From positions 31,186,001-31,250,000 of the forward strand of contig NC_043014.1 of NCBI RefSeq assembly GCF_006345805.1: a DNA stretch of 64,000 nt, in the 5' to 3' direction. Source of the DNA: Octopus sinensis. Lineage: Eukaryota. Made by a program: the position numbers and the translations under genes. The notes beneath the pieces were generated by a model, which was not told the origin of the DNA, did not search any database, and saw only the letters and a list, made by a program, of their open reading frames with translations. This document shows positions 42,001 to 45,000 of this stretch, piece by piece (within the stretch, counting starts at the first letter, position 1; each line of letters opens with the position of its first letter).

Positions 42001-45000
42001 ATATACACTTTAGATGAGTTGTAGTGCACCTGAGCACTGTACACAATTGTTGTTATTATTATTATTATATATCTATATCTATATATATATATATACATAT
42101 ATATGTATATATATATATATATATGTATATATATATATGTATATAAAGTTAATCCAAACATGAAAACATCAAGAGAAAACACAACAATGCGAGGACGTGG
42201 AACAAATATAGTATTATTGGACGCTCAGGAAGGAAGGGAAGAAGGAGGGTTTTACGTTTCGAGTGGAGCTCTTCGTCAGAAACATAGGAAAAGGAAAGAT
42301 CTAGAGAAGGGAAGACGGAGGAAAAAAAACCGGCAACGGTACACACACGGTCACATTTTGAATGTATGTATATATATATATATATGTATATATATATATA
42401 TATACATATATATGTATATATTATATATATATATGTATATATATATGTATATAAAGTTAATCCAAACATGAAAACATCAAGAGAAAACACAACAATGCGA
42501 GGACGTGGAACAAATATAGTATTATTGGACGCTCAGGAAGGAAGGGAAGAAGGAGGGTTTTACGTTTCGAGTGGAGCTCTTCGTCAGAAACATAGGAAAA
42601 GGAAAGATCTAGAGAAGGGAAGACGGAGGAAAAAAAAACCGGCAACGGTACACACACGGTCACATTTTGAATGTATGTATATATATATATATATGTATAT
42701 ATATATATATATATATATGTATATATATACATACATACGTGTGTGTGTGCGTGTCCTAAAAAAAACAAAAAATAAAAATAAAACCTTACACCAAATGAGT
42801 GCAGTCACTGCTCCAATCTGGTCGATATTTTGCCCCCATTTCTCTGGCTTTGTCTCGTAAATCAGCACGGAATGGGTTCTGGAAACCACTGAGTACAAAT
42901 ACCACATTATCCATGAGCTTGCTGAATGGTTTGTTCGACTTTGATATGGCAGCTAGATAATACATGAAACAAGAGACTGAATGAGGAATAGAAAATGGTC
43001 CTCTGAGAGGAGGAATCATACAATTAATTGTAATGACAATTTTAATAGGAAAGATCTCAGATGCTTAGACCACAGACCACAAGTGTTTAAACCACTGATG
43101 CCAGACATTTAGGTTTCTGACTGCCAATGTTCAGCACTCTCACTAAGTATTTAACCCTCTAACCATTGATTTTGAAACTATAACAGAGTTCCTAGTGACG
43201 TGTCTTTAGGCAACCAACTAATCAAAAATACTTTTGCACCTTTCACCTTTGGTTTCCCAAAACACCAAACAATGTGCCTTCATACCTGCTAGAAATAGAT
43301 GCGAAACATCTCTCATATCACACCATTCCATTTCTAAAAAATATTAGATAATGCTGTCTTTAACACTTTTGTTACCAACCCGGCTGAAATTGGCTCTGGC
43401 TCTGTAGTACAAATGTTTTGTTTTCATAAGTTTTGAATTAAAATCTTCCACCAAACTTTAATCACAATTTATGTTCCTAACAATAGTTTAATGATAACTA
43501 AGTTATTTTACAAAATTCTTTGTAATATTTAAAACAATTGAAAGAAACACAGAGCATCTCAAAATAAATACAGTAATTAAAGGGTTAATACAGTGTCTGA
43601 GAAAGAACAAAAGAGAAAAACTGAAATGGTCATGACTGGAATGTTCTTGATCAGAGTTTACCAAGGGCTAAAGTACTACAACAAAGATGATGTGGTTGAT
43701 GACATTAAAAATGAAGGTTATACTTTCCTGCAATATATAAAGAAATATTTGGTCCATCTACTGTCATCATTTAATATCTATTTTTCCATGCTCGCATGGG
43801 TTAGATGAGTTTGTCTGAAGCAGATTTTCCATGGCTGGATGCTAACCCTCACTTGTTTCCACGAAAGGTGATATTTCTCCATAGCCAGTCATGTCCTCAC
43901 AGAATATTGTAAATGAATAACATTGCTTGTATGATCGACATTCATTTACAACTACCTCATGATGTCAGTTCCTGTCCACTAAATCTACTCACATGGCTTT
44001 GGTTGGTCCAGGGTTATATTAAAAAATGCTTGCCCAAGGTGTCACACTGGGATTAAACCCCAGAACCATGTGTGCACCTTTCACATAAAATATTTAATTT
44101 GTGAAAATCCACCATGCAGGACAAACAGTTACATAACAAGTCAATTACAAAGCTTCAATGTAGTTGTCTAATTTGCTGAAATAGCAGCTAAATCTTCCTA
44201 AAATGGACACTACTGTCATTAAAAAAGTTCTAGACGGTGCAGTCATAGCTGTGGGGTAAGAAGTTTGCTTCCTAACCACATGGCTCCAGGTTCAGTCCCA
44301 ATGCATGGCACCTTGGGCAAGTGCCTTCTACTATAGCCTCAGGCCAACAAAACATTGTGAGTGGACTTGGTAGATGGAAACTGAAAGAAGCCTGTCATGT
44401 ATATATATACGTGTGTGTTCGTGTGCATGTATGTGTGTGTTTGTGTGCATGTATGTGTGTATTTGTCCTCCACCACCACCACCACTTGACAACAGGTGTT
44501 GGTGTGAATATGTCCCTGTAACTCAGCAGTTTGGCAAAAGAGGCCAATAGAATAAGTACCAGGCTTTACAAATAATAATAAGCACTAGGGGCAGGGGTTG
44601 ACTTGTTCAAGGTTGTGCCCCAGCATGGCCACTGTCTAATGATTGAAACAAGTAAAAGAAAAGATAAAAAGATACATCGCCTAAAGGGAAAAAAAGACAA
44701 CTTAGTTGTGGCTAAAATGTTTTACACCATAAAACAGTTTGATCACAATGAGCTTGAAGCTAACCAACAAGAACAACACCAACATCATGAAGAGCACCTA
44801 AAAAAGGTTTTAAAAACTGAAGCCCACAACTCACCTTTAGATGTAGTGGTTTCTGATTTGTGATGGCTATTTTTGTGGCTATTATTACTACTACTACTAC
44901 TAGGAGTAGATTTGACATCGTCCCTCGATGAAGAATTAGATTTCTTTTCTTTCTTTATAATGTCTGCTTGTTTTTCTTTTCTGGAATCTTCCTTCTGATG

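Follow-up and report, generated by a model that had tools for sequence, protein, structure and literature searches.

A duplicated Penelope-type minimal hammerhead motif in an XRCC1 intron of Octopus sinensis, probably an inert relic

Results

The locus and its host intron

The window analyzed here is a 64,000-nucleotide stretch of the Octopus sinensis genome (contig NC_043014.1, positions 31,186,001 to 31,250,000 of the forward strand). Two exons that together encode the first BRCT domain of XRCC1 lie on its minus strand (Table 1); the human XRCC1 BRCT domain (PDB 2d8m_A) matches the upstream exon with an E value of 2.4e-18, and the intron between the two is in phase 2 and 5,784 nt long. Within this intron, 116 nt from the donor to the start of its first unit, is a tandem repeat for which TRF gives a period of 308 and 2.2 copies. 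When the two units (221 and 220 bp) are aligned, a single homopolymer A is the sole difference between them.

Two minus-strand matches to our hammerhead core pattern, 42562-42587 and 42254-42279, stand against a chance expectation of 0.00 in 100 shuffles, so the motifs occupy 42557-42591 and 42249-42283 once the 4-bp stem I is counted in. Both lie on the XRCC1 sense strand, and about 5.2 kb of intron downstream of the second motif is still to be transcribed once that motif has emerged. In each motif, stem II consists of GAG/CUC round CUCCA and is followed by GAAA and then CG-U-A, and the letters from A15.1 to U16.1 read ACGU without a loop. A first-pass annotation of this DNA had described two near-identical units with a 308-bp period, minus-strand motifs at the coordinates given above, a position between the BRCT1 exons on the XRCC1 sense strand, and, as the motif, a minimal type I hammerhead of Penelope type whose ACGU stem III has no loop and in which an extra A follows A9. 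These descriptions agree with the tandem search and unit alignment, the two core matches, and the exon match and splice sites; the cuts that it predicted, 42561/42560 and 42253/42252, are correctly placed.

Table 1. Positions of the duplicated unit, its motifs, the flanking tracts, and the XRCC1 exons in the window.
Feature	Position	Strand	Basis
Unit 1, donor-proximal; 5'-truncated 3' end (pLTR) of a Penelope-like retrotransposon	42453..42673	-	Family copies 94-96%; extended copies continue into GIY-YIG/RT frames
Unit 2, second copy of the unit with one homopolymer A fewer	42145..42364	-	Unit-to-unit alignment
Hammerhead motif 1, minimal type I; predicted cut after 42561	42557..42591	-	Core pattern; descriptor of PMC4209133
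Layout of motif 1: stem I GUUU/AAAC, core CUGACGA, bulged A, 3-bp stem II, GAAA, loopless ACGU palindrome	42557..42591	-	
Hammerhead motif 2, identical to motif 1; predicted cut after 42253	42249..42283	-	Core pattern
G-to-A change at a CpG, fourth stem II pair lost	42572 (motif 1); same change at 42264 (motif 2)	-	Comparison with related copies
TA tract A, outer	42066..42144	.	TRF, alignment
TA tract B, junction; start like tract C, end like tract A	42365..42452	.	Alignment
TA tract C, outer, donor side	42674..42737	.	TRF, alignment
XRCC1 exon, first BRCT1 part (PDB-matched part; 5' boundary unmapped); donor GT 42789-42788	42790..42926	-	
Next XRCC1 exon, second BRCT1 part (CAFANTPK...); acceptor AG 37007-37006	36892..37005	-	

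No hammerhead family was among the 32 Rfam matches obtained between 38000 and 47000 at E values up to 5; the top matches were miRNA models placed on the TA tracts, and all of them fell below the gathering score. It is the descriptor in PMC4209133, not Rfam, that fits the motifs in the XRCC1 intron. Beyond tract A, window positions 41500-42048 are occupied by a high-copy repeat with a very high summed contig depth. Its frames resemble what we take to be the end of a transposase and the end of a LINE reverse transcriptase.

Origin of the unit and size of its family

A DNA search of the octopus genome with the unit returned 4,301 candidates, and scoring of the best 40 gave 41 matches, of which the 39 outside the pair were 94-96% identical to it. 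None of 28 other top loci carried a second copy within 1.5 kb, and these loci had their 3' end in common, mostly ending in a TA run. Exact patterns gave 3,516 copies genome-wide for the canonical core with a four-pair stem II, 5,969 for a U4C core, and 250 when the flanks of the XRCC1-intron copy were included. Summed over both cores, there are at least 9,485 copies as opposed to 155 close same-strand pairs.

Copies with a longer 5' end led to the source of the unit. There were 170 such matches, and many of the 30 that we examined have upstream sequence in common. At one locus (L102) this upstream sequence continues unbroken into a GIY-YIG-type frame and then into an RT frame, all on the same strand. 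The unit also lay 1.1-2.1 kb downstream on the same strand at 7 of 13 further endonuclease loci (chosen loci of 9.9 kb each), with an identity of 84-90% at five, 86% over a partial match at one, and 79% at another. At two loci (L141 and L142), an open frame of 1,008 codons is flanked on each side by a 71-80% relative of the unit, and the motif is present in both pLTRs of the full-length relative. Since longer copies reach GIY-YIG and RT frames and relatives flank the open frames on both sides, the unit is the pLTR end of a Penelope-like element that lost its 5' part.

The L141/L142 frame has an RT followed by a C-terminal GIY-YIG domain, a DKG motif, and Cx4CxxC ahead of the endonuclease, and it is bordered by two pLTRs. 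Pfam E values for the two frames were 0.002 and 0.0007 for RVT_1 and 0.02 and 0.04 for GIY-YIG, both domains falling below the curated cut-offs. Craig et al. (bioRxiv 2021.04.23.441226) give DKG, and Cx4CxxC before the endonuclease, for Neptune and Nematis. The parent would thus be an EN+ Penelope-like element of Neptune/Nematis type, a clade reading that is taken from motifs and leaves the two together. Pfam had no match in the two broken L102 frames, and a PDB sequence search with the full open frame gave no match. RT-like frames near three further loci (L017, L030, and L058) were considered as the parent and set aside; they had no useful Pfam match and no sequence shared into the unit.

Conservation of the motif and variation of its core

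Conservation was counted over 193 motifs from the loci examined, which are not a random draw and comprise 171 from this family and 22 from a sister family. Of the 193 motifs, only two have G at position 17; the others have U, A, or C there. The fourth pair of stem I is G-C or G-U in 153/171 motifs of this family and C-G in 15/22 of the sister family, a switch that counts as one event. The fourth pair of stem II is C-G in 153/171 family copies. By these patterns, the motif looks selected, and looks like a true hammerhead, at the level of the family. In the XRCC1-intron copy, the fourth stem II pair is lost: position 42572 carries G in 41 and A in 6 of 47 related copies, and A was found at the corresponding stem II position in 11 of the 100 matches listed.

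In the sister pLTR family, which numbers 13,318 exact copies genome-wide, core position 6 is U (CUGUNGA); one decayed copy lies in the window near 16229 on the minus strand. Position 7 takes all four bases in this family and the fourth stem I pair has switched to C-G, which looks like selection on a non-canonical core. A slow natural A6C variant has been reported by Perreault et al. (PMC3088659), and among the literature matches listed the term A6U occurred only in a twister paper. The open-frame elements with two pLTRs have a U4C core together with a U-U mismatch in stem I (L141 at 2859-2954 and 9132-9215; L142 at 7163-7350 and 1067-1255). According to the account in PMC3088659, U4C lowers activity in vitro, yet leaves enough for a viroid. 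Compared with the U4C of the open-frame elements, the catalytic core in the XRCC1 intron is fully canonical. The 13,318 A6U and 5,969 U4C copies bear on whether PLE hammerheads need cleavage at all, and the wider hammerhead family is of more interest than the XRCC1 locus.

Duplication of the unit

The insertion lies in a TA tract, which would mask any target-site duplication. The two units are identical to each other apart from the one A, and the best other copies in the genome reach 94-96%. Compared with the commonest letter in each column of 47 relatives, both units show the same eight differences, and at least three of these are at CpG sites. Tract B is a hybrid whose start resembles tract C and whose end resembles tract A, as a single misalignment of the outer tracts round one element would produce. 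It is therefore likely, from the alignments, that the unit was doubled after insertion, either by microsatellite misalignment or by an assembly error.

We rate an assembly artefact, with a single unit in the animal, at a little under an even chance, a weight that is counted within our main reading as one form of it. The copies differ by homopolymer and microsatellite indels alone, and the assembly often shows local duplicates that are near-identical, many of them without any substitution. Seven loci, the XRCC1 locus included, carry near-identical local doublings in 610 kb of sequence fetched for reasons other than tandems. A further tandem doubling in the window itself (4657-5203, period 267) lies between TC tracts, has no substitutions in its aligned unique parts, and contains no ribozyme. 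Contigs from three sequencing runs cover the unique flank 42789-43300 with 0-1 differences and all stop in TA tract C, and none of the listed contig pieces from these runs bridges tract B, a coverage that fits one unit as well as two. However, unequal exchange between microsatellites leaves the same hybrid junction. Moreover, some pairs carry a few substitutions (five in the L166 pair and two to four in L184), which indicates that real duplications of this type do occur.

The window holds another tandem doubling at 28908-29174 (period 134) with three substitutions, a short indel, and TA at its end. Four other loci (L032, L052, L053, and L110) contain near-identical local duplications as well as inversions, 0.5-1.9 kb in size. 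The assembly may carry many false duplications.

It was also considered whether the pair was inserted ready-made, as a dimer derived from a circular retrozyme-like RNA or as a partial tandem of the element. PLEs are described as forming partial tandems (bioRxiv 2021.04.23.441226), and some arrays of the family in the octopus have hardly any TA spacer or none (L184, with three units at a period of 216, and L193, with a period of 210). However, both copies have in common the eight differences from the family's commonest letters, at least three at CpG, and the outer tracts of the locus itself are combined in the 88-nt spacer. Furthermore, no sister copy of the exact unit was seen among the 39 other top matches, none of which exceeds 96% identity. 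A ready-made insertion is thus improbable.

Pairing of this kind is not peculiar to XRCC1. An exact head-to-tail junction pattern had matched the XRCC1 locus only in a genome-wide search, and the pair was at first taken to be unique in the genome; this pattern was too tight, because its anchors contained a letter that is rare in the family. With a plain pattern, in which one motif follows another on the same strand at 180-380 nt, 155 places were found genome-wide and the claim of uniqueness was overturned. The first 30 of these comprised eight same-family pairs in which a TA tract separates copies with 0-1 mismatches, nine diverged same-family pairs, and 13 with a partner from another family. 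One near-identical pair (L174) has a broken core common to both copies, and L203, one of 20 further loci picked as same-family, has a broken stem I common to both copies; doubling is therefore blind to the integrity of the ribozyme.

Predicted folding and likelihood of cleavage

A double hammerhead at this locus would be a nested fold with two 4-bp stems I, one shared 4-bp stem III, and two 3-bp stems II, and such a fold is sterically possible. With the G-to-A change, the stem II hairpin is predicted at -1.4 instead of -4.4 kcal/mol (20 C). Forcing the double hammerhead placed it 16.9-27.6 kcal/mol above the free ensemble over four parameter sets at 20 and 37 C, in a model that ignores tertiary contacts, Mg, and proteins and that was run with no double hammerhead of known activity for calibration. 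Relative to an open state, the same fold was favorable in seven of eight settings (-1.9 to -12.2 kcal/mol) and cost +2.2 in the remaining one.

The folds that the model prefers follow from a 5' arm that is complementary to the motif's own GAAACGU: one copy is predicted to form a plain non-hammerhead hairpin (-6.3 kcal/mol for the single motif) and two copies a long duplex between them. All 14 natural pairs that were folded showed a penalty of 20.6-29.7 kcal/mol, with the XRCC1 pair second worst at 28.6. The penalty is family-wide by this model, which may overstate it. Because it affects the whole family, because the double fold is favorable against the open chain, and because a positive control is lacking, the penalty ranks the XRCC1 pair low but cannot prove it inactive. 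Within these limits, the folding predictions are unfavorable to self-cleavage of a dimer at the XRCC1 locus.

Published assays of this class point in the same direction. A single minimal motif did not cleave, and the activity of dimers and trimers is described as "some, though low" in assays at 10 mM Mg over 20-180 min (PMC4209133), an extent of cleavage that we take from the wording of that paper rather than from its gels. One of nine Xenopus dimers cleaved and was highly active (bioRxiv 2026.07.22.740005). At the mammalian Pol II rate of 3.5-4.1 kb/min quoted in PMC10274809, the remaining ~5.2 kb of the intron would be transcribed in about 1.5 min, and in a longer time in a cold-blooded host.

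These results bear on the proposal that a real doubling switched on a double hammerhead that cuts the XRCC1 intron co-transcriptionally, lowers the mRNA, and sheds a 308-nt circularizable RNA. The canonical core, the sense orientation, the steric feasibility of the double fold, and the length of intron left to transcribe are all compatible with it, and an intronic ribozyme is described as tuning the expression of mouse Cpeb3 (PMC10274809). Even so, we consider it very unlikely, given the weakened stem II, the 4-bp stem I, the 4-bp shared stem III, the strong competing duplex, a window of ~1.5 min against the slow in vitro cleavage of the class, and the fact that nothing sets the XRCC1 pair apart from many other pairs. 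If it were true, the dozens of such new pairs in the genome would keep supplying new intronic ribozymes and would offer a view of the birth of retrozymes.

Discussion

We favor, with a probability of roughly 85%, the reading that the XRCC1 intron contains an inert PLE relic that sits twice between TA tracts, owes its doubling to the assembler or to a microsatellite process of a general kind, and is predicted to be too weak and misfolded to cut before splicing. In the course of events that we propose, reverse transcription primed by a TA tract would have placed one 220-bp pLTR in the intron. This copy would have aged in place and come to differ in eight places, one of them in stem II, from the letters most common among its nearest relatives. 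Misalignment of tract A with tract C, whether it took place in the animal or during assembly, would then have produced the second unit. Once transcribed, the motif's 5' arm (AUGUUUC) is predicted to base-pair with GAAACGU, either inside a single copy or between the two, and such pairing would bury the catalytic core. The first-pass annotation had proposed that the duplication may turn an inert relic into an active ribozyme. The 155 close pairs and the near-identical pairs with broken motifs speak against a pair that is special or likely active, as do the loss of one of four stem II pairs, the predicted competing duplex, and the weak or mostly absent activity of published dimers.

For now, the XRCC1 pair matters little in its own right: pLTR hammerhead relics of its kind number in the thousands, and near-identical local pairs in the dozens. 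It can nevertheless serve as a test case, since a real pair that cleaves would show that an active ribozyme can arise in a DNA-repair gene through a simple slip at a microsatellite. That outcome would also support the step from solo pLTR to retrozyme that has been proposed by Li et al. (bioRxiv 2026.07.22.740005), in which local amplification of a solo pLTR is the origin of tandem units.

By its layout, the XRCC1-intron motif belongs to the class of minimal PLE hammerheads described by Cervera and de la Pena (2014, PMC4209133). The motif has the core CUGANGA...GAAA...UH, one nucleotide that falls between 9 and 10.1, the pair G10.1-C11.1, and a location in a pLTR. Also as described there, 15.2-16.2 is palindromic without a loop 3, stem I is short, and most copies are single and derive from 5'-truncated elements. 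A Neptune motif of Acropora digitifera given in the same paper has the same layout, with a 4-bp stem II and a CG palindrome. The XRCC1-intron copy differs from the class in having only three stem II pairs and in being locally double with a TA spacer. One supplementary file of PMC4209133 contains no octopus entry. No paper on hammerhead ribozymes and octopus addresses this family by title or abstract in a search with most subscription journals outside its reach, and the word "ribozyme" does not occur in the text seen of a 2026 octopus repeat annotation (PMC13282606).

The parent resembles the EN+ Neptune/Nematis elements (bioRxiv 2021.04.23.441226) in its RT followed by a C-terminal GIY-YIG domain, in Cx4CxxC and DKG, in pLTRs on both sides, and in insertion at (TA)n, although the window holds the last 220 bp alone. 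In an intron, a further comparison is the mouse Cpeb3 ribozyme (PMC10274809), a self-cleaving motif on the sense strand, as the XRCC1 pair would be. The Cpeb3 ribozyme has a measured half-life of 2-3 min and demonstrated effects, while the XRCC1 pair is recent, derived from a repeat, and predicted to misfold.

The term retrozyme-like, also used in the first-pass annotation, applies here in one sense and fails in another. Non-LTR retrozymes (PMC7229834; Li et al., bioRxiv 2026.07.22.740005) and the XRCC1 pair are alike in a tandem unit of ~300 bp, a low GC content, a type I hammerhead in each unit, and pLTR ancestry. The loose operational filter of Li et al. takes a TRF tandem with at least two units that each bear a complete motif, canonical or minimal, and a folding energy below -5 kcal/mol; the locus would pass it, the fold in this case being the non-hammerhead hairpin. 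The sense of the word in PMC7229834 does not extend to it. The retrozymes reported there by Cervera and de la Pena in 2020 have canonical hammerheads, are expressed as circles, and are marked by the usual helix sizes, contacts between loop 1 and loop 2, and an arrangement mainly in tandem dimers to multimers; minimal motifs are set apart from retrozyme hammerheads in that paper. The XRCC1 pair, by comparison, has a minimal motif and belongs to a mostly solo family, and 88 of its 308 bp are microsatellite. Two three-unit arrays of the family are better retrozyme candidates than the XRCC1 pair: L184 (G000:C5:28268500-28271500), with a period of 216 and almost no TA spacer, and L185 (G000:C9:15386500-15389500), with a period of ~200.
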